Made by a program: the position numbers and the translations under genes
Source: Marsupella aquatica
Lineage: Eukaryota; Plantae; Marchantiophyta
Length of the DNA: 64,000 bases
Assembly: GCA_973895155.1 (NCBI GenBank)
Contig: OZ316893.1
Location: 27,910,210 to 27,974,209, forward strand
Direction: 5' to 3'
The notes under the pieces: model-generated
The model's database searches: none
What the model was told of the DNA's origin: nothing
What the model saw: only the letters and a program-made list of their open reading frames with translations
Shown: piece after piece, positions 34,749-60,821 of the stretch
How positions within the stretch are numbered: the first letter of the stretch is position 1
Layout: each line of letters begins with the position of its first letter

Positions 34749-35187
34749 AACATATACCACTTCTCCGATTGGGTTCGGAGGACCGCTGTCAATCCTGATA
34801 CTAATATAGACATATGCGCATGACTGTTCACAGAAGAGATGGATACGGGAACTCCAATCTCTTGGATATATGGATGACATACCACGCCCTTGTAATATGG
34901 CCATTCAAGTTACATTGGCTTCCATTTTGGCAGCATGAAATCCATACTGCCATACAGACACATGATCGAGAGGTCATGAGCCGTGGGATAGATGACGAAC
35001 CAGGTCAGTTACTACTTCATGTACTCGGAATCTCCGAATGGTTTACCATTTTCCATGCTGCCGGTTGTGTTGGTACCACTGCCGCACTCGAAAATCTAGA
35101 TGAATATAGTAACTGCCTGTCTAGCTTTGAAATATCGATGAAGAGGAGCTCGAGCAGGCCAGGCTAATCGGACAAAAGATTGCGACG

Positions 35188-36336
35188 ATGCTCTCTTATA
35201 CCCCGAATAGCAATGTCACAAATGATAGTTTCTCATCATCGAACGCCTCTGACGTCGCAACCAAACTTCGCGCCAATCCATTACTTAATACTGAATGGCT
35301 ATCGCCTGAGGAACGTATTGCATTTAATGAGTCTATAGAAGGTGCTCAGTCATCCCAGAGAGAATTAGACGATTCAAAAAAAGATGGTGAACCATTCGTT
35401 CCTAACACTCCACCTAGATTTCTAGAATGGGAGTCCTCTAAGGTTGACTGTTGTATGTGGCGGATTCCAAACATCAACAACCTGGCTCCACTGTCTGTCA
35501 GTATGTGGAAAGCATGGGCTTCCTTATCCCCTGAAGATATCAACAGTTGTCGGGAGAATGCTTTACGTGGTTTCTCATGGATCGAGAAATCTCCCATGTA
35601 TGTTACGCGATGGCCCATGACTGTATTTGGTGCACCTAAATACAAATGCCCTATCGATGCGGGTGTCAAAATTTGAGGTAACTTCGTTACCAACACGTCA
35701 CGCTCAACACAGGAACACAAGACCAAACTTTGGAATTGGCACCGACCATTTCTTCGATGTACCTACAGTGCTTCATCCAAAAATGGGTGCATGGGCCAAA
35801 TCGTGTGGTTTGACCATGCCATATGGTACATGGCTAATCACCTTGAATTATTTTTTAATGCATCGACAGCACAAGGTCGACTGGTACTAATGATGAGTTT
35901 TCTGGGAGGAGATGCACGCCGTATCGTTATGGACCAAGTGGCCTTCATCTTGGTGCAACAATTCATTCTTGACGCTGCTGGAGAGCAACTCGTCGACCCG
36001 AACGCATAGTTACTGGCAAAATACGGTAATGCCTCTGGGGCGCGCATTATCGAGGCTCTTATCAAACCTGGGGAATTTTCTGATCAAACTCCAGCTCCTA
36101 AACGAAAATGGAACCTCAATCAGACCCCTGCTTCTGACCTTGCCAAACAAAAAGGCATATACGCCAATCAAACGCCACAACGAGGACGAGGCCGTGGAAA
36201 CTACTCATGGCAGCCACAGACTCCTAATTCATCTTTAGGTGCTCCTAGCCAATTTGCGGGCCCACAGTCTTGCGCCAGTACCCCATCGTCTGATAACGGC
36301 CAGTCACCACTGCAACGACGTAATCTTCACTTTTAA
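35188..36336 (+). pseudogene. ORF1 of Penelope-like element, unknown function
   Basis: A single frame 35188-36336 with two in-frame stops (35674 TGA, 36007 TAG); W-rich core and a C-terminal RGRGRG/low-complexity tail. It probably extends upstream across a frameshift near 35130. No GIY-YIG motif was seen. Confidence 0.6.
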
Positions 36337-36673
36337 ATAGCTATGGGTACTTAGCAGTAGGCAAATAAACCACTAACGTGTTTAAGTTATGATGCACGTA
36401 TTATGGCTTCTATAGTAGTACATAGAGAACCAGTAAAACGTTACATTACAGCTTTCCATTCCTACTTAGTGTTTGCTGATACTTAAAATGTTTTGATTAA
36501 CCACCATCCTAGGTTAACTTTTATGTTCAGTCTCGTATTCAATCAACCTTGCAATCAACTTAGAGCGGTTATACTTAATGGGTCCAAAAGTTTAGCAGAA
36601 CACATCGTCTAGCATCAATACAGGCAAACATCACTACACCTCCGGATCTAATAGACATCACACTATATATTCT

Positions 36674-38842: not shown

Positions 38843-38875
38843 ACAAATATAGCGAGGAGATGTCAAAAGAGGAGA

Positions 38876-38987
38876 AGTTGTGAGTATGGTATGCACTCCC
38901 CGTCTGGGGTGAGTGCAATGCACTCCCCGTCTGGGGTGAGTGCAATGCACTCCCCGTCTGGGGTGAGTGCATACCGCACTCACTACT
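38876..38987 (+). repeat. Long hairpin whose 27-nt tip is triplicated, in the RT 3' UTR
   Basis: ATGCACTCCCCGTCTGGGGTGAGTGCA x3 (38891-38971), enclosed by AGTTGTGAGTATGGT / ACCGCACTCACTACT. Confidence 0.9.
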
Positions 38988-39023
38988 GATGGGGGTGCCG
39001 CTACCATGGGTATATGGAGGTGG

Positions 39024-39026
<3 letters not shown>

Positions 39027-39059
<33 letters not shown>

Positions 39060-40424
39060 ACATGAAGATAGAATATGCCAAGATGTTCAAAACAAAAGAT
39101 TAGAGCAAGTACAGATAGGCCAGAGAGTACAGTAGACGTTGTGCAAAATATGTAAAACATAGTAATGTTTACACCTTATATATGTAATATTAAAGTCCTG
39201 TAAAAATATCCCTATTAAACACGTACGCTGCACCAGCACCCTTCGATCACATCAAGTACAATAGGGTACTCCAACTCTCGTAAGCTCATACTTCACTAGC
39301 GGCTACCCTAAACTCTGGACATCCTCTACTTAAGACTCCCCCACACAAACAAATTTTCATCCACACATTTACGCATGAGCACATTTTTTGAGTAAGTTCC
39401 TAGCTCCTCTGTTCCTAGATCCTCTGTTCACAGCACGACTAGCACTTCTCGCACGACGTTTTTAGGACCACTGAGAACGGCCACAGCAGCACTACATCAC
39501 AGCCTGACACACACACGGAAATCGCCCTGCAGCAACAACAAACTCAGCATGGCTCGTACCAATCAGGTATACACTCATAAAACATCCATCTTTTTCAATG
39601 AATTTTTTTCCTCGTTTTTTGCTAGCCTAGTATCGGTTCATGTCTCCCCGTTACCGCCGCGGCTAGAGGTAGCAGAAACATGGAACAGGGATTGAATGCA
39701 AATAACTTTTAATCTCGCCCCGGGGACGGGGGCTGAAAGACGACCCTGGGGTTTGTGATGCAGAATATGTCTACTGTATTCCGATGCTAGTTGAGGGTCC
39801 ACATCAGGCAGATTGACTTGCTGCTATGATGAACTGCGTAGAATGTCCGGCTTCAAGAATGAAGAGGATCGCCTTAACTTTTTTTGTATGCTTCTACCCG
39901 TGGCCCCTAATACTGACTATCGACTGTCGGCAGTTAGCATTCCAGAAGGTTTCTTTTCTAAGATTACAGCGACACGATTCCGGCACATCTAACTTCCGAT
40001 AAACTTAGATTTATTGTAGAACGGTTAAATACTGACTTTACGTTGACCATTGCCTAACGTATGAACAATAGTTATTAATGGCAGAACTTCATCATTCTAT
40101 TCTACTCACGACTCTATTTAGAAAGATCGCGCACGACCTGACCACTTGCCTGGATTACATAACGCTTTTCTGTCAATTTCTACTTACGGTCTTGTTTAAA
40201 TATTTCTGGTCTAAATCATTTGGTACGCATGAATAAATTCTTGATTAAGTGTCTATCTATGGTACACCTCGATAACATGAATGACTTGGTATGTGGAGTA
40301 TTAATAGAGACATGACTGGTTACCAAGACTCTACGCTGTGATGACTTTGCCTATGTGTGGTGACTTAGTACAGACTTGACACTGGCCTTGACTGGGTGTT
40401 TTTCTATGAAAATGATCTCACTCT
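39027..40424 (+). repeat. (TC)15 plus downstream pseudo-LTR copy
   Basis: Direct repeat of 33369-34748; ends at ATGAAAATGA|TCTCACTCTC, where the host ORF resumes. Confidence 0.9.
39627..39790 (+). ncRNA. Structured RNA motif, copy C
   Basis: Same as copy B; the C>T change in AATCTC keeps pairing as G-U. Confidence 0.75.
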
Positions 40425-43400
40425 CCCCGTAGTCTATGGCTGGTATGACCCCTAACAGTCTCCACTCCAGGGGAGAGGTCAGAAGAAGACCGACCCTGTG
40501 TACCTAAACTGCCGTAATGCCCACAGTCTACTAGGGCCTCCTCCTGCATATCAGGCTCCTCCCCTCCATGATCTGCCTCCTCATCCTCCGTGATGGGCCA
40601 TGCCACTAACCCCTCCAAAGGAATCCAATCCTCTTGCACATGACATAAGATTTCAGTGTACCTCGTGCAAATAGTGGATGCAAAACCTAGCATAGCAAGA
40701 ACCTAACCTGACTATGTAACTTACCACTGGGTGGTCCTCCGGGACAGAGTTCAGCTTAGCCCATAGGGCCGCCGGGCCATAGCATTTTGAATAGAGCCGC
40801 TCCTGCTCACTTGGCTCGGCGTTGGCTCCAAACTTGCGTTTCTGCAGGAAATTGAAGAACGTCGTCACCACCATCGTTAGTTACAAAGTTCCAAACAACG
40901 TTTTTGACTTAACGTTGTTCAAATCAAGGTTTATGGTTTAGCTGCCATATTAACGACGCAAGAACAACGTTAATTAAATGTAATGTCATGAGAGACGTCA
41001 TAAGGTAGGAAGAACGTAGGATGGGGAGACGTAAATTGGATAATGTACGATGTTAGAGGAGAAAAACAATGTTAATTCTTGGTTCTCACCGCAATGGCCG
41101 AAGCATGAACAAGCTGTGCTTTGAAGAGGGTGGGGGACTTACATAGGTTGCGAGGAAGCCTCGCCATCCTCCCTGGCCCCAGAAGTTGGTCACACACAGG
41201 TGGCCATTTGATTTGCGGGCTGTAGTAGCTTTGTCCCCCATGTGCACTCGCTTGCCTACTAAGGTGTCAGGTGCTGCTTCCAACTCAGCCACGATCAACT
41301 TGAAGTCGGCCTCACTCATTCCTTCTGGTTTCAGGTATTGCTCTGTCCTTGGGCATCTCATTTTTTGAACCTTGTTTCTCCATCTAAACCTCTGATCTGC
41401 AAGGTAGCCTACAATCTTTTGTTTGATGTGCCTGTAGTCTATTTCACGGCCATTCCTAAACCCAGCCTGCACATCATTCAGGAGGAGCTGAAACTTCTTT
41501 GGATTCTGTGCGAGATCCTTCCAAGTTGTCCAACCAGGACAGTGCTTAGCACAACACGTCTGCACTCGATTTGTGAGGGCCTTCTCATCCACAACATCCG
41601 GCCTAGCATCAAACACGTCCAAGGTGATGGTTGGGAGTTTATCTCGACTCACAATAGTAGTTACAAGAGAAGGTCGTCGCTTCTTGTGGGAGTGACGTTC
41701 ATGCTGAGGTGAGTACCTCTCTCTTCTGTTTGCCCTTGCATCTCCCTCTGTTCTTCTTCTTTTGTAGCTGCTTCTACTATGTGTATTTGCATCTCTATGC
41801 TCCTTCCCTTTCCCCTCCCGTCTTCTCATCAAGGCTGCTATTGCTACTGTGTGGTCTATCATGATGCCTCCTCTGCTTGCAAGAGTCCCGATCCTGATCA
41901 GGCTAGAATCTGTCATGTGCTACCCTGACCATGCTCTTGATTGGGGTCCCACTAGGTGCCTGAGAATCAGGCTACATTCCATTGAAGGCAGGATCGTCCC
42001 ACCCATCATCTGGTAGGGATGGGAAGGAGTTGAGAGCATCAATCGAAGGCCCCCCAACCTCCCCCAAGAGTGTTGCATCTTCAGTTTCCACAAGGGTATT
42101 TACAAACGACAAGAACCAGGAAACAGTAACAGTAAACAGTTACTGTTACCAGGAGAAATGAAAAAAAAATGTGATTGAGCTCCATTATTTGGTCAAGAAG
42201 TTTAAAAAACACCATCAATAAACCCCATTTTCAATCGTTTTCAATACCACCATCCAATTGTGAAGGAAAGTAGGGGCCATTAGAACAAAGGTGTTGCCGA
42301 AAACCTAAGATTACCAGCGCCCAACGCTAGTATGCCGGCAGGAAAGCCAAAATTTTGGTATTCCTAAAATAATGAAAATGATGGAGATTGGAGATTCTAC
42401 GTAACGTCAATCGAGAAGAGAACAGGGAACTTAACGGCCATTAGAAAAAGGAGTTTCCAAATTTTGTGGATATTAGCAGCGCCCAGCGCTAGTATGCTGG
42501 AAGATATTGTCTGTCATATCAATTGAGAAGTGAACATAGGAAACTCAATTTGAAGCATTTCCAACAAAGAGAGGCCACGGCAGACGTTGAATATTTTCAG
42601 CGATGGGCGCTACATTAAATGTCAGACTTCAAGAAATCAATGTTAGCGCCTAAACATGGAACAATGAACATAAACAGCGCTCGGCGCTAGCTCAAATCTA
42701 GGAATCAATGAATGACCATGAAAGAACAAGAGAGCCGATCCAAAACTGCATTCCTTACTTCCAAAATTGGTCAAAACATATAACCGGTATTACACCATCC
42801 GCAGATCATCTTCAAATCAACCTGCAGCATAACATGAACATAAGCAGCGCTCGGCGCTAGCTTAAATCTAGCTTAAATGTAAACTAAAACTGGACCTTCT
42901 GTCACTGAAAGCACCCACAGCCCGAGCACTATAATCCTAGCGATTTCCAGTAGTCGTCAAAGCCCGTCGAAGCCCGCCCTGGCCTGTATGTGCTTTTTCT
43001 TGAGCTGAGCCGCACATAATAGGGCCGCTGATCCAAAATGGGCCTAAACATGTAGCCGAAAATACATGAACTTTGAATCAACCATAGGAGAAATCCCACG
43101 GTCCAAGACGAACAAAAGCAGCGCTTGGCGCTAGCTTAAATGGGAAGCCTATGGCCACTGAAGCTTGTGTCACTATAACCACCTCCGTCGTGAACAACTT
43201 TAGCTCTAAGATTGGCAGTCGTCGTCGATGCCCGCCGTGGCTTGTCTGTGGTTTTGCTTGAAACCTAGACCCCTGAGCCGCACATAAGAAGACGAGGGGC
43301 ACCGAAACTCCGCATTCTGATTCCCGAGGTCTAGAACATTTGTATCAAGGAAGTCAACACATCCCAGTCGCTCTTGTACTCGTCGCTGAATAGGCTGAAA

Positions 43401-44044
43401 ACCAATCAGGAACTGCGAGCGGAGTGTCCCGGTCGTCAATCCAAGGTAAGTTCCTCTCCCCGGGACTAATCGCCTCATCATACGGAAGCGCAAAAAAATT
43501 CTGGAAGGTTGAGGTCTCGCTGGAAGTGTCACCATGAACGGACTCGAAGGAGCTGAAGTGACTCTCGTCCGGTCGAACTCTAGAAGGAGCGAGAATGCAA
43601 GCATCTCCTCCAAAGACATGATCTCCTTCTTCTCCATCTAGTGGGCACTGTTAAACAAAATCTAGGCTAAAGACAAGACCGGTGTTGTTGAAATGACCCA
43701 ACTTCGAGAGAGGTTGTGTCTGAAATAACTTGCGAGAGTGACCTAATGGAGAGTTTAGGTTCGGAGATCAGCAAAAATGTATCACAGAAAGGTTCAACGC
43801 AAAAAGGACCATTGAGAAAGAGACGACTATTTTTGGTAACGACAACATATGCGGGGCCAAGGAACGGACGAAGGATTCAAAATTTGCAATTAGAAAAATA
43901 GACGTTTGAGGAGCGCCCGACGCTAGTAAGGGAAATGAGTAATTTGATACATTTTGTTTTCAATGTAACATAAACAAATCATATATGGGATAATAAATAC
44001 ATGTATTATGATAACAGCACCCGACACTGGCAAAATCAAACGCT

Positions 44045-47000
44045 TCAAGAATCGGACGATTCCGATTCAGAGCTCTGTGACCTCTCAATAGAGACCGCCT
44101 CATCATCTACATACTTGCTCCTACAAACGTCGTCTACATAAGGATTTCGGACAAATTTTCTATCAACTCCTCTTCGTAGCCGGAGACCTTTGTTTTCCCA
44201 ACAAAGAGTCCTCTGATTATCTTCCATTCTTGCAGCATTTTCAGCATAAGAGGGTAAAACAAATGGTTTCTCCGAAGTGACAATTTCAAAACGAGCTACT
44301 TTTCTTCTGAGTTTGAAGCGTCTTCTCGTATTCCATTCGGACCTAGGTGAGAATAGAAGTTCGTCAACCGATTGTATGAATGGATAGCACAAAAGCATGA
44401 AGGAACTGGAAAGGAGAAAGAAGCTTATGAGTTTCAGAACATTACTCGGAAGAGTCATCGCTGTCACTCTGGCCAACGGATTGTTCCCGACCCTTCCCCT
44501 CAGGTGTGCCATCCTCATCCTCGTCTGCTGTACCACCACTTGACTCGTCGTCAGAGTCAAAATTAAGTACAGAACGGAGCTTGTCTCTCCTTTTCTTTTT
44601 GGGTGGTTGAATTGGGGGTGGCAAAGTTTCGACTTCCTTTGGAGAAAGTATATCTAAGAACACCTTGGAACCAGTTTCAATGAAATCTTTCCTATTCTCC
44701 ACTCCAATTACAAACCTCCCAGAATAGTCTCCAGCTACAAAAGAGCTACCTGACCCCACTGTCCAATCCATGAAAATATCCCTAGGATGAGTGATGAGCT
44801 CAATGATAGATTGCATGAATCCAACCGACAAACGGGCATTTCCAGCAAATTCCATCTCAGGTGTTGGATCCACTTTGAGAGAGGGAAGTCCAATTAAATT
44901 CGTTATGGAGGGATTTTCCGTGGCAAACAGAGGTCTAAACCTCGAGTCTTTTGGCACCTTCCCTTTTTCAGACACTCGACAGAAGACGTCAAGCCTAAGC
45001 ATGAAGATTGTAGCAAGGTGATAAAGAGATAAATGACTATTTACTCCTTAATAACTCGATTTCATTCCCGTTAGGAGTGGATAAGATCGAAAAGACTGAA
45101 TTAACACAATTTGAAAAGTTTACACCAACATTCTTAGGTTGGAGAGATTTCTAATGATCTCCTTAACATAAGTGTTTAACCACAAACTCAAGTGGGTAAT
45201 CCTTAGGATTAACAAAGATTGAAACTAGAGAGAGTAGGTAGGAGGTTTCAAAGCGCAAGGAAATTGAATTCCGACCATCACCACTCCTTCAATAAGGATT
45301 ATGGCCTAATTTAAGATTCGGAAATCAACATTGTATATGCTTTTTGATTTCTCATAGCAACTCTTCTCCATCTCTTGAATTTAGAAGACAACAATGTAAA
45401 TCAACCCGGGACACTTTTCTGGTCTTGCTTAAGACGGTACTAGGATACTCGAATTGGTTTACTTCTCCTACTATCCTTAAGATTGTTTATTTGAGTTTCA
45501 CGTAAATTCCAATTTCTCTTTGGTGGATCTTCTATATGAATTGGTCACAGACCTTGCTGATCTTCCAATATCATCATAGGCACACGCTAGTATTCATTGA
45601 ATATTGCACAACAACTCAAAGGGTTGCTAATCTTGAAACTTCTCTTTACTTAACCATGGTAAAAAGAAGGGAAGAAAAGACATAGATTTCTCCAAAATCA
45701 AAATGGGGAAATCAAATGCATCTCTCTCTCCCAGGGTTAACTTTGGGTTCTCCTCCTTTTGTACTAAAAGTGGAGATTATGAAAAGACATGCCTCTTCAA
45801 AACCCAAGTCTAAAGAAATATGTAAATAAAAGTGAACTATCCTAGACAAAAATGGAGTAGAGTCTCCAATGGATACACCAACAAAATACTGGAGTCTGCT
45901 TACTCATATACTAGTCTATATAGCTATTTCTAAGTCTAAACCAATGTGGCTCTAACTCTCTAAATATAACTCTATTCTGGTCCTAGCTTTTGGGAAGGAA
46001 CCTCCTCAGGGTTAGCCATGGCAAGGGGTTATAGTCGAAGGAAAACTCCCTGCTGGCCAGTGGTAAAAGGGATGGACGGGTCAATATCCATGTTCTCCTG
46101 ATGGGCACTTGGGTCATGAGAATAAGTGTAAGAATGGGAGTGGAAGTGTGTACTGGGAGTGGGGAAACCAGGAGGGTTGAGGGGTGATGAGGGGCCAGTG
46201 GAAAAGACTCCTTCATGAGGACTAGGAGAGAAAGATCTGGTAGTAAAGGCAGGAATCTCAGTATCAGCTAATAGCTCCTCTGTAATCAAGTCACTCATCT
46301 CCCTTAAGGCTTTACAGGTCTTTGAGAGACCCGTAAGTGCATCATCTACTCTGGCACTCACATCTACCACTAAACCCGGGTATGCAACTCCCCTTTTTAT
46401 AAATCAAGTTTTTAATTCCTTATAATGACCCTATATCCTTAGACCATCTTAGATTTCATTTTAGTTTACTAAAGTCTTGTACCTCTCAACTTAAGGAATC
46501 CAAAAATGTAACTTAAAAAAAATTCTGAATATGTTTTGATGTATAAAAAGTTGATCAAAACCAAATTATATGACTTTTTTTTAATACAGGGGTCTACAGC
46601 CAAACTAGCCAGCTTTTTAGGATTTTTATTAAAATTTTAAAAATCTTTTAATAAAAACTACAACATGTATAGGAATATTTTTTAATTTCATATGGAAAAA
46701 GAGGAGAACCAAACCTTTTATATGACTTGAAATTTTTTAAAAGTGGAAAACCCAGGTTTTTTCAAATTTTAATAATTTTGTATAGCCAACTTTTTAGTCC
46801 ATATAAAAATGTAGACCCCTGCCAATTATACAAGAGTTGCGTACCCGGGCCACTAAATGGTTAATCTTGGAGAAAAGGATGGGTGTGGTGTTCTTGGCCA
46901 AATACTCATAATAAATTTGGGCCTTAAGAAGATCCAGAGAAGCTATCTTAGTCAAAGGCTCAATCAGATCCAAAGATTGAGTGATACTGAGTTGGAGAGT

Positions 47001-50000
47001 ATGCTCAAGCTCATTCTTCTTCTTACTCCTTTCCAACTGTTGTTTGAGTTCAGATATCTTCTTCTTGAGGAACTCATTCTCCTTCTCCAACTTCCTCTTA
47101 TCTGTGGCATCACTCATGGTGGAGATCTTTTCAAGAATCTGCCCTGGTTTCCCTCCTAACTTCTGAGAAATGTCAGTGATGGCCTTCTCCATCACAGTGG
47201 TCTTCCTCTTCACCTTCTGGAATGTATTTGAGATGATCTAGAAATCAGCTAGGGTGTCTAGGGAGGCATGGCCGGGTGCATCCGGAAATTCAGCCGGGTC
47301 GACGAAGGCCGGGTCGGCAAAGTCTGGGTCGAGGTTCCGGGCAGCAGACCGGGTTTTTTGAGGATTTGTCTCTGCTGGTTCCTCATCCTCACTGTCATCA
47401 GAGGTGGCCTGGGTGATATCTGGATCTGCCTCTCCATACTTTATGAAGTTGAACTTGGCCAATAGTAATTTATTCTCCTCTCTGAACAAAACTCCTTCAA
47501 AGCTATATAGATGTACCAGGTAGCAGGAGAGGGGAGTAGGACTCTTATTGGACAGGTTCTGTACCAACTTCCTTATCAAATCAAAGATAAGCTTAGCCTA
47601 GTTGACTTTTCTTTCTCCCTTGTAAGCAGCAACAATGGTAGAGCCAACTCCAACAGTAACTCTTCGTGGCTTCTCTGGATATAGTAGGGGTAGCAGGAAG
47701 CTGAAGACTCGTTTCAAATCAGGATCCAAACACTTAGAAACATTGAACCCGTCCTTATTGTTGATGGCTCCTTTGAAGTAAGGAAGGATTAGATTGACAA
47801 CTCTCCCCACTGGACCTTCTCCTTCATCTTCCAATACAAAAGCTCCTGCAACCATCATCTGAGTCCATCGCTCAGGTCGGCCTCCGAAGGTATCCTTAAA
47901 CTCAGCCGGACACTCCTTGGATCGGATCTCTCTGATCATATCTTCGCTCTGATAACTCCAGGGTAGCTCCATTAGAGACTCACAGCCCATCATGAGCAAA
48001 GACTCCCTCAATTTGACCTTCTCAGCTTCACTGTCCGGAATAGCTGGCCTCAGAATTTTCATGGCAATGGGGACCTCCTTTCTCTTTGATCGTCTCACAG
48101 GAGCTTTAACTGGAGTAGGTGCAGGTGATGTTGAGGTTGAATGCCCCTTAAGAAACGCGAGAAGTGGACATTCCGGCTGGATCCGCCCCTTGCTCCATAG
48201 GATTTCTGGAAGTAGCAAATTGATTTTTGGTAAATGTTCTACCTCCTCTATGGCGAGCTCTACAATGATGCGGCTTCAGAATGTTCAATCTCTTCGGTGT
48301 TGACCACTGGTAGAAATGTCCGGGTTGACCTGGCCGCAGCGTTTTTGATCAACTGACGAGCTTTTTTGAAGAAGTGTATCAAGATTCCGTCAACCAAAAT
48401 ACAGGTGCATCTAACTTGGGGAAAAGCTAGACTCAATCGGGCCTGCAACGGTGATGTCCGGGTCGACCTGGCCTCCCTTCTCACAACCGATGTATCCACA
48501 ATCAAGATCTTAAACTTCCTACCTTCACTTCCAGCGGTGGAGTAGGCATTCCTCTCACAACGAATTAGTCAGTACCCTCATATCCAGGCTCTCATCATGT
48601 AATGCAAGATTGGTCCTATAATCCGGACCCAAGATCCTCTACCAAAAGGGTAGAGCCTCCTCACTCTACTGCTTAAACAGCCTAATGCGCTCGGGAGCTC
48701 AAAACCTACTAAGTTCGGCTTTGAGAGGTGTGAGGTGTGAGAGGCCGGATCGACTCTCCTTCCTTATATTCGGATTCTGCTTTGGTCGTGCCTGTGTTTG
48801 ACTTATGGTTTTAAAAACTTTGGCAATGGACAGCTGTTGTTCAGTAGAGTCGCGTTGTAAGCTTTTATATCTCATCACGGCTTATAGTAAAAAGTTCCGA
48901 GTCGATCATCCTTCTCTAATATCAATCCGGGTTGACCTCTGATGGGCTTGAAAGTCTCATACCACTTCAAAGTAGTCTTCAAGTCCCTCTTCAGCCTCAT
49001 TTGAGATCTTAAACGTAAAAATTCTAAAATTTATGGTTAGTTAACCCTTCTTTCATAAACATCCTTATCTCACAAAGATTTGTAATATAACCCAAGAAAG
49101 GTATGTCAATGGATGTATTCATAAACATTTTTTGAACCGCAAACCAGATGTCACGATGATAAATTTACCTGTCGGTCAGTCTTCGGCGCATACATTGGAA
49201 CTGACATGACAACATTGTGTGACGAGATGCAATGAAATTTCTTCGAATCCTGACAGGCCGATATAACCTAAGACATTGGATCGTACTCCCCGTTATGTAA
49301 AATGGCCAGCATTCCGTCATCAGATAAAAATGGATCCATTCCACGAAAGAAAGAGGTGGCCAAAGTGTGGTCAGGGACATTCCATTTCGGAACTTTTCTG
49401 TCTAGCAGAGATGGTTTAAGTCCAGTCGGAAGGTAAATAAAACCCGCGTGGACTCCAAATGATCTCTCCTTTCCACCACGCACAATGCCCTTCTCTCGGA
49501 AGCCAGACTTCATGAGATCCTTTCCCCATTTCTCTACACCATTCACCCAGTCAGGCTTCTCCCCTTTGTTAAACGTTGAGTCGTAGAATTCTGAGATGCT
49601 AGATTCAACAAGGCAATGCCTTGAAAGTCTACTCTTGAAGTCCCCGACTTTGCGTTGAAGACCTACAGCAGCAGCACTTTCTCGAGAGGAAGATCCACCT
49701 TCAATGGTCCTTTTTCTCTTCTTCCTTGTACTGGTCGCATCCACTGGAGCAATCGCCTTCCCTTTGTCGGCAGGAGTAATTGGATTGGATGGTGCTCCAG
49801 TATTGGCTTCAAAAGCCTTTGGGGTGGCATCTATCTTTGTATCTCCGCTCCCCATGGCGTCTGACTTTCTCCCTGTTCAAATGGATGCCGAGGTGATATC
49901 CGTTAATATTGATACAACGACAATGCTAACGCCCAACGCTGGCCAAACTATCTGTAATACTAGGCCATAAATATACACTTTTGGACTAAAAATACCAACT

Positions 50001-52365
50001 CAGTTTCTGAAATATTGACTCTCATATCAGCTACGGGCGCTAACAATGAAATAGATCTTCACTGCCATAGCAGCGCCGGGCGCTAACCAAGGAAACCAAT
50101 TATACTTACATTTTTTCCAGATCTTGTTGATTCACTTGGGGCCGTAGTATCTGCTTTTGCTTTGGCGCAAGGCTTCCTGCTTTGGTCAACATGAACAATT
50201 GTTGTCTTGCATATTGTTTGCAATCGTGTTGTGGATTGATCCACATCGTCCGGAAGCCCCTGATTCATGTCAGAAACAATGTTGACTGGGATCTGGGACT
50301 TAGACAGCTTATGGAAAGCATCCTTTTCTCTGTGATCAAAGGGCGAGTCCCATCTATCTGTATCTAGGTACCATGGACAATGGGTTCTCTCCCATTCACT
50401 TAAAGGTCTTGCTGGGAAAATTCCCTTGACAGGATACATAGAATACAATTCAGCTAAAGAATCACTCTCCGGTACTACAGTCCACTTGAGGAAGGCGGCG
50501 GGATACGCCCAGAAGTAATCAGGTTTTGTAGCTTCCATGTGGATGTAAAAATGGTAGAGGTACCATTTTGCTCGCTTCTGGTTCTTCAAAGAGTAATCCT
50601 CTTTGTCAGGATACTTCGAGGGCCACATTGTATTAAAAAACTTACCCTTGACAGAGTCACCGTATTTCCTAAAATCATTCGTGTCTATGTCAATGAGAGA
50701 TTCGAATGATTCACATGCCCAATCTTGTAAACGATTCACGGGAATGGTTTGTTGGACCTCTCGCAGAGCACATTGCAACATCCCCACCGCAATCCCTTCT
50801 ACATTATTCCATGTAATCCAAGTGTGACACCACTGTTTTACTGGATCATCATTGACGCTATTCGGATGGAAGAATTGTCTCCAGAGCTCCGGATTGCAAT
50901 GTGCTACAAGCAAAGTACTTTGTAGCTTGGCGTCAAGAGCCAAAACAGCTGTAAAAAGCCTAGCCCGGTCCATGGTACACAATACGGTATCTGGCTTCTT
51001 CTCCCGCTTATTCCTCTCCGTGACAGCATACATTTCTGCGCACATAGACAGAAAGTCCTCAAACTCTGGACTCAACAAAGGAGTGATTTTTGAGGTCTTC
51101 ACTGCCCATTCCTTGGTTGCTTCCTTCATCATAACGGCATGCCTTCTGGAAACCTCCTCGACCGACCAAGGGGAACCGAGGGCCGCAGCGGACTCCATGT
51201 CAATCTTGAACTGGTTCAAATACGACTTAATCTTATCCTGACATAGAATGTACACAAGGGCCTCCTGAGGCATCTTCTTTGTGTACCAGGATCCTTTTCA
51301 CATCTTCATCCTGATCTGCTCAAACTTCTTGTAATTTGCAGGGTCGATGAGCTTACTATAGTACTCCAGGTCATGCATCAAGATCCGCTTAATTCGATCG
51401 GCATCTAGGATCCAGGAGGGTTCCACAACGGCTTGTCCAAGCCTGAAATGCAAGAATGAAATGAGAAGAACATATAAGCAACGTCGGGCGCTCGTAAAAC
51501 ATAGCCTCGGAAAGTTATGCTAGAAAGAATGAACAATTCACAATGACTCACGAAGTTATGCACAAAAGAGTATCTTACTGATTAACGGTATGCATAGCCA
51601 CTTCGATTTCTATCAGCGAACCCTTGTCGCCATTGAAAATAGTACAAAGTACACGCGGGTGGTACTTTGGGTTTCGGGACTCTCCTGAGTGACAAGAGTC
51701 CACGAATAAAGCCTATGGTTCCCGTCAAAAACTGAGAACATTTTGTCCTTCAAAACCAGAAAATCTGGGTCGGCAGCACATTCTTCCTCGAATTTCTCAT
51801 TCTCAGATGTCCATATTGGATCCCAACTCTCACGAATTTCTTGAGTACAGGTGAGAAGCACTCCCTCAGCATCGGTAGGCTGAACGTAAAACCTCATTCC
51901 AATCGAAGAATTGTATCCCATGCTAAGGAAGCAATCTTTGAGCTTGTCGATGGAAGAACTATCTTTCTGTAGAGTTTGGACAACCTCCATATGCACCAAT
52001 CGACATAGTGGAATTCGTGGAGGCTCTTTGTCAAACCCTCTGAAATCCTTCCCAAATGACATGACATGTTTTGAAATAAGATCCGTCTCAGAAAACTAAA
52101 CATCTTGAATCGCAAATGTGTCAAGATTCTCCATCTTCTTTCTCGCTGGCTTGGCAAATGAAATACCAGAGATTGGAACAAGCGATGCGGTGGACCTCAT
52201 TACTCGACGCGTATACACCGAACCAGAGAATGAAGACTCAGAAGACTCACAATATCCATGATCCTGATCCCCAACCACACTATACCCCCTCGACAAGGAG
52301 CGGATTGCATCCATCGTCTTTACGATGAAAGGTGTACGAACAGAATTCTCACGACTGATTACCAA
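44045..52365 (-). pseudogene. Multi-exon gene: ParB/Srx-like N-terminal domain plus C-terminal beta-class N6A/N4C DNA methyltransferase-like domain; split by the 45019-49072 insertion
   Basis: IPLCRLV…IDKLKDCF…VFDGNHRLYSW (ParB-type DGNHR, ~51712-51726); a large middle exon (~51440-50110); FIYLPTG…KWN…FLSDDGMLAIL (degenerate motifs IV-VI); THPRDIFMDWTVGSGSSFVAGDYSGRFVIGVE (motifs X-I-II, ~44700-44790). Several stops and frameshifts. Confidence 0.7.
45019..49072 (-). mobile_element. 4.05-kb solo-LTR-like unit (TG...CA, TSD CAAGG/CAAAG) with internal ORF
   Basis: TGATAAAG…CTTATCTCA; the flanks differ by one base. Removing it restores the host frame (…PKTDRQ, ~87-nt intron, IFATIFMLRLDV). The internal minus-strand ORF 48218-46794 (PLLYPEKPRRVTV…, coiled coil) has stops. 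Confidence 0.7.
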
Positions 52366-53241
52366 TTCTCCGTACTATATTAACAGTTGCGGCCGTATTA
52401 TATCCGATCAATGAGTGCTATTCCCCTCTTTGTAATCGGTTGGAGAGACGTTACTCATTGCGAACGACGAGATTCAATTTTATTTATCCGTGACAGAAAG
52501 CCGACAATTTAGAAATTGCGATAAGTATTAATGTGAATTACGCTAAAATGTTGTCGTGATCATCACGCTAAATATTAGTTACTGTTAAATGTTACCGTTG
52601 TCTCAACACCTTTCAGACAGAATGCAATGCCAGCGTCGGGCGCTAACGAAGAAGTGACTACCAAATTCAAACACTTATTGGTGAACAAATGCTAGCGCCC
52701 GGCGCTAGCCATTTGAATAATTTGATTAACGTTCTATTTTAGTACCAGATATTATCAACAAACTTCCAAATGTACTCGTTTCACCCGTAACTAAACTTTA
52801 CTTGATATTATGGTATTAAGTATATTGTATCAATACTAGCGCCTGGCGCTAGTAACGATTTACTATTTTTGAGCTTTATTTGATCTTGTGATGCAATATT
52901 TTGAAGAAAAAACATTGATATTTCGTGTATGATTATGCTAGCGCTAGGCGCTAGTCACAAGACTTTTCAAAATAAGTCATTGTTTTTTCCAATGATTTTT
53001 AGGTAGCGCCCGACGCTAATGAAATGGATGCACTTGTATAGGCTATTATCTAGTCATATTCATGTAATAAATATTCCTGACACCCGCACTTTCCGGGAAA
53101 AAAGGACAAATGTCTCATTTATGATTTCAACGGACGCAAAGTTGTGCGTGTTCTCTGTCGTATTGGAACGTCTCTTTTAATGGCCGGTGGTCCTTGAAGG
53201 GGTGGTATAAGCAACCAATACGGTCGGGATTGGGTTAGTGC

Positions 53242-54850
53242 ATGAATTTCCTTTGGCCTAAACTTCATTCATCTACAATGTCGCGCTCAATTGTTATTAC
53301 ACGTGCTTGTACCGGGGACGTCGTCAAGGTTCCTGTGCAAGTTTCTGATACTTACAAGCAAGTAAGCAAGACCTACCTGTGCGGGAGATTCGATTTGAGA
53401 ATCAATGACATTGAGTCGATTGTTCTTGAGGAGTCATTGAGTGGAGGACTTGAACCAGCTGCGGCATTTGATGTGGATGACGGAATACGTTTCTGGCACA
53501 TGAATGTAGGACTTCGTTACACGCTTCATGTCAGACCTACTCCTCTTCAATCGGTTGTTCAGGACATTCCGCCCCAGGTTGTTGAAATATCTGAGAGTGA
53601 AGATGAGGAAGTTGCGCCCAATCCTCCTGAGAAGCACAAAGTTCCAGGCTCGAGTTGCCTTAAGAGTGAACCGGTGGCCACTTCCGGAGGTGTCCAGAAG
53701 GTTTACCGGCGGAGTGCAATGGACGCCCTACTCAAGGCCATGGGCCATAGTGAACTGTCAAGATTTATCTCGGTAGGGGACTTCCGACACGATCAAGTTC
53801 CTTGTTTGCCAAACAAGTACAAAGGAAATGTTGTATTTGAATTGCCTCCCATTGTGGGAATGCAGTCCAAAGGATCTAGACTTCGTGACATGGACCGTGC
53901 CAAAGATTGTTACATTTGGACCAGGGATTTTCCAATGACCGCAAACGTGCAACCAAAGAAACACTGGGAGTTTGGTAAAGTCACTTGTACTAGGTTCGTC
54001 GAGTGCGGAAACAAGTCCTGTGAATATTTTTGGCAAAAGAAGAGATGCAATCAAAAGCGTGGGCTGGTACCCCTAAGCTTAGTGGCCAGCATGTGGTGGG
54101 TTCGTTCATTGAAGAGGGTGGTATAGTATGTCACTACTGTGAACAGATTCCTTTCTATGTGGACTCTTGCCCTGCTCGCTTGTTCTATATGTATCCACAG
54201 GTTCTACTTGATACAGAAACCTGTAGACACATGTCTCGGCTCGCAGTTCATATAGGTGAACATAACCATCCGAGTAGAAAAGTTTTCTCGAGGAGCGCTG
54301 AAAAGATGGCCAAGGACTTAATAAAAAGAAATCACGAAGCCAATCCTCTTGCAAAGCCGGCTGGGATTTTGAATTCGACGACTGGTTCGCTTGTGAAAGC
54401 TCTTTGCGAGAACATTGACGACATCGTAGATATTGAAGAAACAGAAATTTGGAAGTCTCTCATGGTTCTCTCTTCTCCTCAGAAATTTGCATCCCTTTGT
54501 CGTAGCGTTTGAATGGACCAAGCTGGTCGTGGTGAGTTAGATTTCCTAGCTTGAATGCAAAGGTCAAATAATATTTCTTTCCTCCAAAGGTATCTTCTGT
54601 CGGGTCAGGGTTGTTTAGCAGATCCGCCCCACATATTCAAAATGTCAGTCAAGGGTCATGGATCTGGTGTAGATCTTCTACGGCAGATGCAACCTAGCGA
54701 AAGACTGGAAGGGGCTTGGGTGAGTTTTGATGTCATGAAGCGAGTGACAACCGACTTTTAGCGCACACGTTTAGCGCACACGTTTACGATCACAACTTTC
54801 GAGCTCTTTGTACAATATTCACATGCGAACTAAAAGCTGAGGATGTAGTT
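53242..54850 (+). pseudogene. Mutator-like (MULE) transposase, degenerate, truncated by LTR insertion
   Basis: A WRKY/GCM1-type zinc finger (CGNKSC…CHYC…CPARLF…HIGEHNHP) is followed by AWVSFDVMKRV…AHVYDHNFRALCTIFTCELKAED, resembling the start of the MULE DDE domain. Frameshift and stops are present. Confidence 0.6.
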
Positions 54851-55759
54851 TGTTATGAAGAACCAAAAACACACTTAAAGGTCCTCAAACTCGGTATTCA
54901 TTCCCGTAAAGAACAAGATGGGGTTGATTTGATACATAAAAACACAAATGAGAGTTTAAGAACTCTCTTTAACACATAGTAATCAGGATTGATTACTTTA
55001 CTAAGGTATTTTGAAGATCGCTCGACAGCGGTGAGTGGTTTTTAATGACAACTCAGCATCATGTAACCATAAATTAATGAAAAGGAAATGATTAACAAAA
55101 CACAAGGAAAAATATCTCAAAGTATGCTAAGGGAGTCTGGAATAGACCAAGGTTACTCCTTAGACATAAGTTAAAATGAAAAGACTTAAGGATTCAAATC
55201 CATATTGCTTTTCAGATCTAAATTGCTTACTAGAGTACTCTTTTAAAATGCCGTCAACATGTCTTATCCTTTCTTTCTAAATGGTACTCAGATAAGATCT
55301 AAAAGGTAGCTACTTCAACATTTAGGTGGTACTAAGCAACATGAAAGAAAATCCATCACTTTCAAATAAGACTTAAACTCAGTGAGTTAACTCTAAGAAC
55401 TCAGGAGATTGTAATGAGTCACCAAAGAGGAATTTGTCATCAGATCTCATAAGATTTACACAATTGGAATTTTACTTCCCATGATTTATTCAAAGGATTA
55501 AACCACAAGAAGGAGGAAAGTCTTCTCCTGGTGTCAAGCTTGATCTCGAACTCTTAACATTCATGATCAACTGGCAGAACACCAAGGAAAGGCAAAAATT
55601 GCTAAACTTTACCATCATCTACACTAGTGGTAGAGGGGTCTTATAGTAAAAATCTACTGAGTGAGAGGTCACAGGGTCGAAGAGACATGCCTCTTCATAC
55701 CCCTCAAAATTTTAAAATGGCGATTCAGTAAGTGAAAAGCCGGAAAAATGGCTAAGTAT

Positions 55760-55866
55760 GAACTCGTAACTAGTAAACTATTAACTCGTAATCGGCTGTC
55801 TATCGGAACTCGTAATCGGAAACTAGTAACTCTTAAACTAGTAAAAGCTAAGTCGTAACTCGTAAT
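55760..55866. repeat. Degenerate heptamer repeats TAACTCG/TAACTAG
   Basis: The same heptamer array recurs at ~63320-63445. Confidence 0.75.
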
Positions 55867-56161
55867 CGCGGTAAAGTAAAGACTTGATGAATTCAACTAT
55901 TTTTAACTTCCTAACTATAAGTCAGAAAACTCTGAGATTTTTCCAGGAGGTTTTCCTAGGTACAGATTATACACTAAAGAAGTATGACAGCTTCCAAAGC
56001 TCTAGAATGCATTTCTAAAAATCAGATAAGATGCACTACTCTAAAAACTAACTAAAAGACTTCTTCAAGCTTGCTGTCGGATGTTGTCGGGTTCCAGCAA
56101 CTCCACAAGGGTAACAATTTGGTTGTGAGTAACCTCCATCAGTTCAGCTTGGCGTGGGGAT

Positions 56162-59100
56162 TGTGATGCCTAGACAGGAATCACTCGGCCGGTTAAGTGG
56201 GTAAAGCAAGAAGGCACCCTAGGAACACCTTAGTATAGTGACAAAACAAGGAAAATATAAACAATTAGGGGCAACCATGGAACCCGGGCAGAGGCCGGAG
56301 GTAAGGCTAAGGGTGAAAACCCGATTAGGGTTAGGGCGCGTTAAGCGTCGGCGGCTAGGAAGGATCAACGGGAAGAAGGACCGGCAGAGGAGAGGGGTAA
56401 GGAGCGCTTGCAGGAGATGGTGGCTCATTTGTGAGCACGAACTAGGCAGACGACTACGGGAGGCCAACTACTGTCAGCTGCTTAGGCAAGCACTCGGGGA
56501 GAGAGTAGATACCGACGATCGACCTAAGGAGGGTATGAGCAACGTCAATCAAGCGGCACATTTCTGGGGATGCCTGTTCGAACGGGCAACTGAGTACATC
56601 AAGACTTACGAGGACGAGGAATCAGAAAGGGCAGCTCGAGAACGGCAGGAGCTCGCTCGATTGTGGGAGCTGCAAAAGACGGCTTTCTTAGGAGGCGAAC
56701 TCATCAAGGACGAGTTCCTGTGGACGCCTACTTCCAATCAACTCGACGATCTTCTGTTTTGCAAAGACAGCGTCGTCGGCATCCGAGAGGCCATCAAGAA
56801 CTGCAACGACATACACTGGGAATTAAAGGGTAGCACGGAAAGGTGGACCCAGGCAACGGTGCTAGGAGAAACCTCCACGGCAGCAGAGATGAAGAGGAAG
56901 GGAGCCGTCAACGATGAAGCCACCCCGGCAAAAAGAACAAGGTCGGCGGCACCAAAGAAGCCAGCCGAGCAGCAGAGCAGGAGGCAGGGAGAAGCCGAAG
57001 AGGAGGAGGTCGATCCCATCAAGGCCATTCCAACCAGGGATGACACCTGGAAGGGCTGGGCGGCAACCCTACCGGTGGAGGTGCAACTACATTTTGCACG
57101 GGAGGAGGATGCATGCTTTACGGCCATGCAGACCAAGAAGTACCAAGGCTTCATGGCCGGATCCGGCTTGGAGGCCTTTGTAAGATTACCATGGCTGAAG
57201 CCGGAGGTACCGGAGTCAGACCTATTAGAATTCGTGGGGTCATGGGAACCCGAGACCAATTGCACGAGGATATATGGGAAGGATTTCTATCTTACTCCCA
57301 AGGTAATTGCCGAAGTGTTTGGCCTGCCGATAGGCAATAAGACCAAAGTTGATACCAGGAAGACCTTGCCTGACAAGGAGTTCCGGTCGTTCCCCGGGCC
57401 ATCAACGAAGAATGGCTTCTTCCGGAACACCTGCACCAACCCGCACATAGGAGAGATGATCGACTTCTTGCGGGTGACCATGCATTGTAACTTGCCGAGG
57501 GCAGAGATCGGCAAGGCACAGGTCTATCTGGCAGAAAGGCCAGACCCAAGCCGGGACTACAACGGGTACCTCCTCAACCAATTGAAGAAGATCTTAAAGG
57601 AGGAGCAGCAGGTAATCGGCATGGGGAGCGTGTCGCGGCTTGGCTATCACATGCCGCTGTTGTGCCGGTATGCCAGAGGTCAGACTTTTGCCCCGGTACT
57701 TCCCCTGCAGGTAAGGGCACCTGAGGAAGCTCCAACGCCGAGGCCGTTGGCTGAGAAGCCTCAACCACCTGTTAGTCCTACGATCGAGCAGGTGTTTAGG
57801 CCCAGGAAGGAAGACTTGCCGATGCAGCAACCAGGCATGCAGAGTCTGCTGAAACTACTGGAGAAAGAAAGGAAATCGGCATCGGCAACAACAACGGCAA
57901 CGGCAACAATGCAGGACACTACTACAGAGGTAGGCCTACACCGGCTCACAAGAGAAAACCCCTTTGCTGGAGACAAGGAGAGAATCAGGCCGGAATCCAA
58001 GCCAGGTGTTCGAATGTACGTGGGAACCTCAAGCTCCGAATCTGAGGCAGAATTGCCTGAAGCTCCTACCGACGAAGAGGAGAGGGAGAAGCCGGACGTC
58101 CAAGAGGTAGAGGAGGCAGTGGAGGACTGCAGCCATGATAATTCCGGCTATGGGTCGGACCATCACGTTCCAGGAGTAAGGACCTGTGGCCGGTTTGTCC
58201 CCACACTTCCAAGGGTAGTGCAAGGGGACCCCAACCAGCAGAGTAGCCCTGAGTCTCCCCCACCAGATGTTGCTCCCCCGAGCTTCGACGGCATAAAACA
58301 GACGGTGCAGGAATTTCAGGAGCGAATCAAGCAGGAGGAAGAGGCCGCCCTGGCTAAGGAAAAGGATTTACCAGGAGGAGATTGGCCGGAGGACATCAGG
58401 TGGCTAGCCGAAAAAGGAAGCAAACCTCTAGCCACGATTGAAGAGATCCGCAGGACGGCTTGGGAGCAGAGGCCACGATGGGCGATGCCGATCACTTCTA
58501 CTTACTCCACCTACGCTAAGAATAGAGCCATGGAGTATGGTGAGATGTGTGGGGAACTTGCGCTCGGCATCTTTGGAGAGGAGTTGGAGGTAGGACCCTT
58601 TTTCCATAGGGAGCAGTTGGAGAAGCACCAATTAGAAGAAGTGGTGGCTTTAGAGAGAAGCAAGAAGGACGAGGTCATTCGGCGGCTTAGGAGGATGGAA
58701 GCCAAGATTGAAGATCTAAGGGCGGCCAAGAAAGCCCAAGATGAACTGCGGATTAAACGACATGAGCTGAACATCATGCAGGGGCAGTTGGACACCGCGC
58801 AGGCTGATAATCAGAATATCAAGGATAAACTGACTCAGACGCAGGAAGAGTTGGCCGACACGATCAAAGAGAGGGAGAAGTGGAAGCAAGAGCTGAAGAA
58901 TACAGAGGAGGCCCACATAACAGCCAACAGCCGGGCCATGGCGGAGACCCAAAGAAAGGAATGGGCGTTGAAAGGGGAGCTCGAGAAAATCCGCGGAGCC
59001 CTTGAGCAGAAGGAGGTCGAGTTAGGGAAATCCTATCAAGGGATTATGGCGCTGCAGCAGGAGCTTGCGTCCCTGACGGCCAGCTTCAAGGCCGACCTAA

Positions 59101-60821
59101 GGGAGAAGGACGAGATGCTCGAATAGACTTACGCCAAGATGAACCAGATGGAGTCTGTCATCATTGCAGAGCTCGACAAGGAGCTAAGAGCAACCCGGGA
59201 GGAGAGGGCTACCTTGAAGAAGGAATTGGAGGAAGCCCACAGGGAGCAGGAGGAGGCCAAAAACGAGCTGGAGGGGGCACGTAAGGACCTGGATGAAACC
59301 CAAGAGGAGTTGGAGGAAATCACGAGGAAGATGGAGAACCTACAGCGGCGGGCCGACAACCAAACAGAGCGGCTGAAGAAACAAGCCGCAGTATTTAAAT
59401 GCTTAGCTGCAGCAGGTCCATCTCCCGTTGGGACAAACCAGTTACCAGGGGTGGTAATTGCCGAAGGACAAGCCGCGTCAACTGCACCAGTGCCGGAAGT
59501 AAGTGGGAAGGGGAAGGGACCAGCTGCCGAGCCACCAACGAAGAAGAAGCGGAAACCTTCAGGGTCAAGGAGTAATACGACTTCACAGGCCGTGGTGATC
59601 AAGGAGGTAGACCCAGCACCGACCCCAGACAGGGTCACGGCTAAGGATCCAACTACCCTAGGGGAAGGGGAGGCCGAAGCCGTGGGAGTGGCTGAGGCCG
59701 AAGCCGTGGGAGTGGCTGAGGCCGAAGCCGTGGGTATTGCCGAGGCCGGTGTCGAGGCTGAAGCCGAAGGTGGACCCAGTCAGGCCGATGGAGAGTTGAC
59801 TCGGTCAAGGGCAGGTAATCTGTCAGTAGGCGGGCCAACGGCAGTGGCTGAGGAGGAAGTGTTGGGGGCGTCCATTGAGGATCCACCACCGGTGTCGTGA
59901 CGGTGCAAGGGCGCCGTTCCTTTTAGGGAGGGCGGACGTGGAGGGAGGAGGCGTGAGTGGGCAGGGCGGGCGCGGATCTCCACGTTTAGGATTAGGATCA
60001 GAACCAGGAGCGGCCCTGACACTTAGCTTAGTGGGATTGCGGTCCCACTGGTAGGAGCAACACTTGTGCTCCTGCCTTGCTGTACATAGGTAGATTCGGG
60101 CAAGTAGATTACTGTCAGGTAGATTAGGCTTACGATGCAAAGAATGGTGGATCCACTACCAGGATAAGTACCTGGGCAGCGGGGAGCTCAGGGCCTCTTC
60201 TTTAGCAAGTTTTTAGTTTGCACCAGCCGGGTTGGGATCAAGTAGTACGAGAAGCTCTCGGTTAGTCATACAGTGACCCTTGTGTATATTCATGTTTCCT
60301 CATGCCTAAGAGCTGAATAGAGTTGGCCTCACGGCTTAGTTCGCAGAACTTGTGTATGAGATGTACTGTTTGTATGGCAAGTGCATGGTATGACTCAGTC
60401 AGAATGAGTCATTTTGCTATTTGTGTGTCGCATTAACTTGTGTGAAGAGTGCCCACATCAACAGAAGGAAGGAAAGTAAGCAGGGGAGTGAGAGTTGGAT
60501 GTGTCGAGCTGAGAGAGGTCTTAGCGGCTTAACCAAGCCTATTGGGGATCATTCCGGCGGCGGAATCCAAACATACCTAACAAGACAGAGGGGAAGACAG
60601 GGGAAGACAGGGGAAGGCCTATATTAGGCCGGCTACGTATCTCATGACCCGATGAAGGATCTGTCCAGTATATGTGTGTAAAATGTTAATAGTAGTAGTA
60701 GAAGGTTAGCAGCGTCCCATGCCGCTAAGCCGCGGAAACGGCCTCGCCAAGCACAAAACCTGCGGGAATCGGCTTGAGCTGGGGGGTTTCTTGGGTTTAG
60801 GGAGCCATGGGACGCACCACA
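56162..60821 (+). mobile_element. 4.66-kb solo-LTR-like unit (TG...CA, TSD GGGAT) with ~1200-codon ORF
   Basis: TGTGATGC…GCACCACA; GGGAT lies at 56157-56161 and 60822-60826. It shares TTCCGGCGGCGGAA…CAAAC(C)ATACCTAA with the 16772/18510 family. Confidence 0.88.
56238..59900 (+). CDS. LTR-enclosed ORF: PMD/plant-transposon-protein-like domain, acidic linker, long coiled coil; one in-frame TAG at 59124
   Basis: 56238-59126 and 59139-59900 are in the same frame. SGLEAFVRLPW…LLEFV…IYGKDFYLTPKVIAEVFGLP; 24-bp repeats encode AEAEAVGV. The true start codon is uncertain. Confidence 0.7.

Follow-up and report, generated by a model that had tools for sequence, protein, structure and literature searches.

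The giant DNA transposon Sola1-1_Ec32 of Ectocarpus carries, on the strand opposite its transposase, a gene for a 1,104-aa protein that combines a ParB-like part with an N4-cytosine/N6-adenine (N4C/N6A) methyltransferase. This protein was proposed to bind and modify its own element, and similar proteins are cited in green and red algae (PMC12477816). In Bostrychia, the Plavaka genes PAG2 and PAG3 provide a PF01555 methylase and a ParB domain, inverted-repeat arrays lie beside the ParB gene, and homologues of Plavaka accessory genes are reported in Chondrus Mutator elements (bioRxiv 2025.02.11.637652). Here we analysed a 64,000-nt stretch of the genome of the liverwort Marsupella aquatica (contig OZ316893.1; the whole stretch is called the window, and all positions refer to it), which contains, in decayed form, one of many copies of a plant DNA transposon with two genes. 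One gene encodes a transposase, the other a fusion of a ParB-like and a methylase-like part. Because ParB-methylase transposon genes have been published for algae, the fusion gene is a land-plant variant of a recently described transposon accessory gene and no new class.

As described, Sola1-1_Ec32 has the same ParB and methyltransferase fusion opposite its transposase, a likeness of description and not of compared sequences. It resides in an alga and uses a Sola transposase, whereas the present element belongs to a land plant and has a putative Mutator-like transposase. A degenerate motif IV and palindromic sites, both found here, are not mentioned in the passages on Sola1-1_Ec32 (PMC12477816). 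In Plavaka, two separate genes encode a fusion of ParB with a 2-oxoglutarate oxygenase and a fusion of the methylase with a SET domain, while ParB and methylase fold form one protein here. In Arabidopsis VANDAL elements, VANC is described to bind family-specific short motifs that are concentrated in introns and in intergenic and terminal non-coding DNA (PMC5735166). The likeness to our element lies in the Mutator type, which is putative here, the accessory gene and the family-specific short motif in non-coding parts. VANC motifs, as far as described, are 8-9-bp non-palindromes, whereas we found a 15-bp palindrome and a protein with ParB and methylase folds; anti-silencing is demonstrated for VANC and would apply here by analogy.

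Eukaryotic methylases of this class are known as host enzymes: N4CMT of bdelloids (PMC10406627) and MpDN4MT1 of Marchantia (bioRxiv 2021.02.12.428880) keep SPPY and are described with demonstrated activity. They share with the fusion family the beta-class order, with motif IV before motif I, but the fusion family has no SPPY and is carried by transposons. Also described are chlorophyte proteins that fuse ParB and a helix-turn-helix (HTH) to a methylase, and DIRS1 elements whose methylase domains are inactive (PMC4738411). With bacterial ParB, Noc and KorB and their parS sites, our system shares the fold of the nucleotide-binding domain and a palindrome of similar length that is repeated in clusters. 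It differs from them by a 40-residue helical insertion, the lack of a recognisable HTH and of ParA, and an identity of 10-12%. The bacterial ParB motif is GExRxRA, where the window protein has DGNHR. Literature searches outside subscription papers and supplements brought up no report of such an element in land plants. New here are a candidate binding site of defined sequence, support from structure comparison for a pocket of the ParB type, and a methylase fold that is kept without its catalytic motif.

A fused gene with ParB-like and methylase-like parts

Translation of both strands revealed a five-exon gene on the minus strand (52314-44045, about 1,211 codons), head-to-head with a truncated transposase gene. 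Exon edges were refined by a few bases by eye from the translations, and the start codon is a guess. Exon 1 (52314-51579) encodes a low-complexity N-terminus and the ParB/Srx-fold domain with IPLCR, DGNHR (51726-51712) and an MHTVN helix. Exon 2 (51442-50110) encodes a helical middle region of about 440 aa without family match. A linker and the N-terminal half of the methyltransferase fold follow in exon 3 (49872-49169), which has FIYLPTG (49441-49421) at the position of motif IV and also contains FLSDDGML. The C-terminal half of this fold is encoded by exon 4 (45008-44446), with motif I (DWTVGSG), THPRDIFMDWTVGSGS...GRFVIGVE and an acidic tail. Exon 5 (44342-44045) encodes a conserved C-terminal motif, LPxYAExA...RNPYVDD, common to the related proteins P0017 and P0142; an earlier interpretation of 44045-44653 as a frameshifted tail was rejected in favour of this spliced last exon. 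A reading made from the window letters without database searches (the sequence-only reading) had predicted a spliced gene of roughly 1000 or more codons and quoted DGNHR, FIYLPTG, FLSDDGML and THPRDIFMDWTVGSGS...GRFVIGVE. All of these motifs were found in the translations, and the gene proved collinear with full-length Riccia proteins.

A search with the N-terminal open reading frame (ORF) against 1.84 billion representatives gave 203 relatives, 150 of them listed. Among 30 that were looked up, 12 had a species name, and all of these were from Riccia sorocarpa or Adiantum. The ParB-like domain of the window falls into a clade of 18 rows (support 100/96) together with a protein named for Riccia, in line with a liverwort host, and the flanking spliced genes point to a plant. 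Riccia P0153 (1,207 aa) contains the ParB-like, middle and complete methylase-like regions in one protein, and the ParB-like region and motif IV are also joined in P0017, P0155 and fern P0136. When aligned to the window by tblastn, P0153 and P0017 matched its pieces collinearly on one strand (E 4e-47, 2e-6 and 2e-8; 0.03 for the last exon). Since the Riccia and fern proteins join both regions and P0153 and P0017 align collinearly to the window, the idea of two separate genes fails, and the ParB-like and methylase-like parts are one fused gene, as the sequence-only reading had proposed. As a side observation, the Riccia members, including P0153 and P0154, are often automatically named 'Trimethylguanosine synthase' in UniRef, which looks like a misannotation of a transposon protein.

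The copy in the window is a pseudogene, again in agreement with the sequence-only reading. Its exons are interrupted by stops at 52098 (exon 1), 51300 (exon 2) and 49270 (exon 3) and by a frameshift near 51675, the acceptor at 45009 is damaged, and the reading phase does not match across intron 2. Only this copy has the stop at 49270; all contigs that cover the position lack it. Intron 3 carries an unrelated high-copy insertion (45019-49074) with TG...CA ends, 4-bp flanks matching in three of four positions, weak terminal inverted similarity, low CpG, and Gag-like or coiled-coil ORFs without Pfam family. This insertion had been recognised before, with its end placed at 49072; it is 2 bp longer. 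In runs X3 and X4, contigs pass directly from 45003 to 49075, and in X4 also from 45008 to 49163; therefore, other copies exist without the insertion.

The N-terminal domain was modelled by AlphaFold (AF2) with a predicted local distance difference test score (pLDDT) of 92. Comparison with ParB CTPase domains resulted in Z 6.4 and a root-mean-square deviation (rmsd) of 2.1 over 70 residues (VIA-align). The domain of a Riccia relative aligned with Caulobacter ParB 7bm8 at Z 8.6 and an rmsd of 2.3 A over 99 residues, sulfiredoxins scoring lower (Z 4-6). A wide structure search of 48,161 chains brought up just 13 with a Z of at least 2, of which the top 8 all belong to the ParB/Srx superfamily. 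A language-model search led to clusters that are partly annotated as DUF3723 (14-47% of members) or ParB_N (11%). The pocket residues are 79-99% conserved among 78 relatives (G 95%, N 99%, H 96%, R 87%, upstream R 90%); in the window copy the upstream Arg is Gln. On the strength of the predicted structures, the N-terminal domain has the ParB/Srx nucleotide-binding fold, and the suggested ParB-type assignment holds at this level. The middle region is helical (pLDDT 50-90), and two Noc chains aligned into it poorly (rmsd 7.8 and 12.8 A). No Pfam family was matched by the N-terminal and middle parts of the fusion protein, and a word-based protein search with the middle region gave no match among longer proteins, which is weak evidence.

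Exon 4 matched PF01555 at E 6.6e-5, which is below the curated cut-off, and PDB entries 5HEK/5HFJ at E 4e-5. The domain of Riccia P0154 scored 0.94-0.95 against N6_N4_Mtase Atlas clusters. A profile built from the relatives only, without window sequence, aligned both methylase exons of the window and placed the Tyr of FIYLPTG on the family Asp. Motif IV precedes motif I, which is the beta-class N4C/N6A order that had been noted from the letters. These matches identify the C-terminal part as a beta-class N4C/N6A methyltransferase domain. In a 906-aa structure model the methylase half was of low confidence; the methyltransferase fold therefore rests on sequence evidence.

The canonical motif IV, (D/N/S)PP(Y/F/W), has no counterpart in the window, which has YLPT instead. 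In N4CMT and CcrM, the aromatic residue of (D/S)PPY is described to stack the target base (PMC10406627). Motif IV reads D-L/M-P/S-x in all 19 Riccia proteins, none of which has an aromatic fourth residue, and such a residue was found in 0 of 28 moss-like fragments (pattern-matched). Across the family it is D-L/M/V/I-P-x, with DIPE in the metagenome locus L022 and DVPF in one fern protein. The other copies of this host have also lost the Asp and have Tyr in its place. The degeneracy of motif IV, first seen in this one copy, thus extends to the Riccia proteins, the moss-like loci and the host copies. Motif I is DWTVGSG in the window, DFAGGWG in Riccia and DWNASTG in L022; compared with D-x-F-x-G-x-G, the Asp and the last Gly are kept, and the rest has drifted.

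Across host copies, 33 of the 40 best-supported of 69 variants in the exon with motif IV were synonymous, and the methylase-like exon is under purifying selection. Considering that most of these variants are synonymous and that the catalytic motif IV is absent, the methylase-like domain is maintained but is probably not a canonical enzyme. The sequence-only reading had left the choice between an active enzyme and a catalytically altered reader; the data favour the altered form, with the aromatic missing in 19/19 Riccia and 28/28 moss-like sequences and the Asp lost in the host. We rejected the possibility that the motif IV Tyr is private to this copy or was generated by a 6-bp deletion: no Tyr-codon variant was among the 40 best-supported ones, and no gap was listed. 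The prokaryotic origin that had been suggested for the gene found no support, as scans of viral and prokaryotic genome contigs with a single narrow peptide pattern returned no relative. A tblastn search of phages gave weak matches (best listed E 0.01), and all 12 listed were methyltransferase genes.

The linked transposase and the palindromes

The 5' part of a DDE-type transposase gene (53278-54845, plus strand) encodes a Cys/His zinc-finger region, FDVMKRV and HVYD, and ends before the second catalytic Asp. Two stops and two frameshifts disrupt it, and a further insertion truncates it near 54845. No Pfam or PDB match was obtained, and a word-based protein search gave no match among longer proteins, again weak evidence. 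Decayed relatives show by eye a D...D...CxxH-like spacing, which we take as a signature of Mutator-like elements (MULEs). The transposase is thus designated MULE-like on motifs alone; this earlier assignment stands for the motifs and not for membership in a profile family.

A metagenome scan returned 80 of 127 confirmed related loci, which form 53 distinct groups (L-numbers denote these loci). They appear to be moss DNA and are called moss-like here. The window transposase directly matched 8 of the 80 loci; transposase and methylase parts in the loci were found after profile iteration, and E-values there are circular. In 7 of 15 groups with at least 5 kb of upstream sequence a transposase was present, every time on the opposite strand. 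The first methylase half was found on the same strand in 16 of 18 groups with at least 3 kb downstream, and four groups have the ParB-like part, the transposase and the methylase half together. The second methylase half and the C-terminal motif were readable by eye in most of 14 loci printed. The head-to-head linkage of fusion gene and transposase proposed from the window therefore recurs in other genomes.

The two genes had similar summed contig depths, which are a rough guide; in all four runs these were tens of times higher than the depth of the flank (38000-39267), and many variants of 90-99% identity were seen among contigs over both genes. The element is a dispersed multi-copy family. 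MULEs have terminal inverted repeats (TIRs) or otherwise defined ends, with a target site duplication (TSD) of 8-11 bp, and a search for such ends around both genes had been suggested as a check of linkage; no TIR or TSD was found in the window and no TIR in 25 related loci. The right end of the element lies beyond the window.

The sequence-only reading overlooked an array of palindromes in the non-coding DNA of the element, as it did the algal precedent in the literature. A 15-bp quasi-palindrome with an AGCG-N5-CGCT core occurs 14 times within 42315-53004 at up to 3 mismatches, compared with a mean of 0.07 in 60 shuffles; the consensus was drawn from the counted sites themselves. In a blind scan of spaced inverted 4-mers, AGCG-N5-CGCT ranked first (13 versus 0.14 expected), and four control stretches gave nothing. 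Six palindromes of the form (C/T)AGCGCYNGRCGCTA are located in 42315-43133 (starting at 42315, 42477, 42598, 42675, 42845 and 43119), and a single one just downstream of the fusion gene (43911-43925). Intron 2 contains three (49927-50085; starts 49927, a weaker site, 50028 and 50071), intron 1 one weaker site (51479-51493), and the divergent spacer between both genes five (52631-53018; starts 52631, 52693, 52837, 52939 and 53004). With the two weaker ones included, 16 of 16 sites are outside exons, with 3,287 non-coding and 5,199 coding bases. The remaining 42 kb on the left contain a single palindrome of this kind, and the nested insertion of intron 3 and the right-hand insertions contain none. 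Given one half-site, the partner half was present in 18 of 28 cases in the element versus 0 of 44 elsewhere, and the flanks are not conserved in the window. The palindromes are CG-rich (41 CG in 240 bp versus 110 in 3,047 bp). Introns and upstream DNA of related loci contain other palindromes, with a CTCG-N4-CGAG core in L004, L010, L013 and L028 and longer ones in L040 and L062.

Possible role of the fusion protein

Our preferred interpretation, with a probability of roughly 0.5, is that the fusion protein is a self-binding, VANC-like accessory factor: a putative dimer that would bind the palindromes of its element in a nucleotide-gated manner and would carry a methylase fold without canonical catalysis. 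It builds on the observed fusion, the head-to-head layout across families, the purifying selection on the methylase-like exon and the non-coding palindromes; from these we infer dimer binding, gating by the pocket, use of the methylase fold as a module, and protection or regulation of the promoter. The dimer would recognise the element's own palindrome through the ParB-middle region. As in ParB, loading and perhaps spreading may depend on a gate formed by the conserved nucleotide pocket (R, GY, DGNHR, M-x-x-x-N). The methylase fold would serve as a module for binding S-adenosylmethionine or DNA and not as a canonical enzyme. Occupancy could keep the CG-rich divergent promoter free of host 5-methylcytosine (5mC), or could regulate both genes, as VANC does for VANDAL.

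Several results weigh against this interpretation. Foldseek with the N-terminal domain returned nothing at E <0.001, though most of the top rows were ParB/Srx proteins, and Pfam and PDB profiles gave no ParB match for this domain. Pfam searches at E 0.1 with 78 relatives revealed no ParB and only two weak DndB rows and one DUF1015 row. No HTH was identified after the ParB domain, and structure comparison gave no clear fold match for the middle region. The transposase, through its own zinc-finger region, or the product of a nearby TnpA-like gene may bind the palindromes instead. Enrichment of palindromes other than (TA)n was seen in 20 of the 80 related loci; 12 had only (TA)n and 48 none, many of the latter being short or decayed. 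Tandem amplification alone could account for the sets in L004, L012 and L013, where conservation of the flanks almost equals that of the palindrome itself. The transposase is absent in 8 of 15 testable insertions. Finally, weak catalysis is conceivable, as most families keep Asp-x-Pro and motif I.

This last point leads to the view that the domain is an active, non-canonical N4C/N6A methyltransferase, which the ParB part loads at the palindromes and which writes N4-methylcytosine (4mC) or N6-methyladenine on its own element, blocking host 5mC at CG-rich sites. Asp/Asn-x-Pro is kept in most Riccia and moss-like copies (DVPF in one fern copy), motif I and the following acidic residue are kept, the palindrome is CG-rich, and 4mC and 5mC are reported to be mutually exclusive at CG in Marchantia (bioRxiv 2021.02.12.428880). 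We consider such an activity unlikely, with the base-stacking aromatic absent in all 19 Riccia and 28 moss-like sequences, and with Tyr replacing Asp in host copies while the exon stays under purifying selection.

A similarly low probability is given to a purely structural role in transposition, in which the protein would act as a clamp, tethering or compacting the large element and joining its ends like CACTA TnpA, with palindromes serving the fusion protein, the transposase or the TnpA-like protein and no effect on silencing. One palindrome cluster lies near the presumed left end, similar genes are described on giant algal elements of unrelated superfamilies, and ParB is reported to condense and bridge DNA. 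However, 9 of the 16 sites are internal (introns and promoter spacer), as for VANC, and a mechanical role alone leaves the kept methylase fold unexplained. Largely refuted and highly improbable is a last alternative, in which the element carries the fusion gene as a captured passenger that does nothing for it, and the palindromes are by-products of tandem repeats. Every copy seen at DNA level is decayed and several palindrome sets are in tandem arrays, but families with a similarity of only about 25-50% share the same layout, most of the best-supported variants (33 of 40) are synonymous, and the window palindromes have unrelated flanks and avoid exons.

The VANC-like interpretation can be extended to a bolder one, which we regard as speculative and hardly more probable than the two alternatives just judged unlikely: transposons of liverworts, mosses and ferns would have a working nuclear ParB-parS system, in which the clamp loads at family palindromes and spreads, and a dead methylase shields or reads cytosines, resulting in a self-specific escape from 5mC that co-evolves with the sites. 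How transposons escape DNA methylation has been worked out in detail for no more than a few elements of Arabidopsis, and the algal ParB-methylase genes represent a proposal without target site or test. Our analysis supplies a candidate 15-bp palindrome, other palindromes per family and a full-length Riccia sorocarpa protein, and it cautions that the methylase of this family probably has no catalytic activity. The idea is directly testable in liverwort or moss. Were it borne out, eukaryotes would be using a clamp of the bacterial centromere type, which might also serve as a tool to edit the epigenome at chosen sequences.

Neighbouring features of the window

A spliced multi-copy gene (40418-41919, minus strand) has no Pfam match and a depth like that of the element. 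It presumably resembles CACTA TnpA-type proteins, and it could be either the element's third gene or part of a flanking element; it had no match in the 80 related loci. Some contigs skip its first intron (joint 40845-41136). Nearby, 42152 is linked to 42668 in run X3, and one X3 contig departs from the window sequence at 42092. Two overlapping short ORFs (43206-43650, minus strand) between the fusion gene and the palindrome cluster have no family and no match in the 80 loci. In five moss-like loci a further conserved, decayed gene lies downstream of the ParB-methylase gene on the opposite strand (L029 17900-20534, L078 15100-19600, L056 14245-16314, L067 7300-9900, L075 5812-7213); the three that were scanned gave no Pfam match.

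The TnpA-like gene is cut by an element (33369-40424) that looks recent. Its reverse-transcriptase-like ORF (37303-38646; RVT_1 E 3.6e-4) is flanked by direct repeats that are about 1.4 kb long and 99% identical. On the other side, the transposase is truncated by stacked high-copy insertions (54846-64000), one of which starts with CACTA at 55624. Within them, the ends of the segment 55740-63440 consist of related short repeats, and two long ORFs in it run towards each other (56223-59900, plus strand; 60706-63186, minus strand). Farther to the left, an inverted duplication (15600-19662) with arms of about 1.1 kb and about 80% complementarity surrounds a retroelement fragment.

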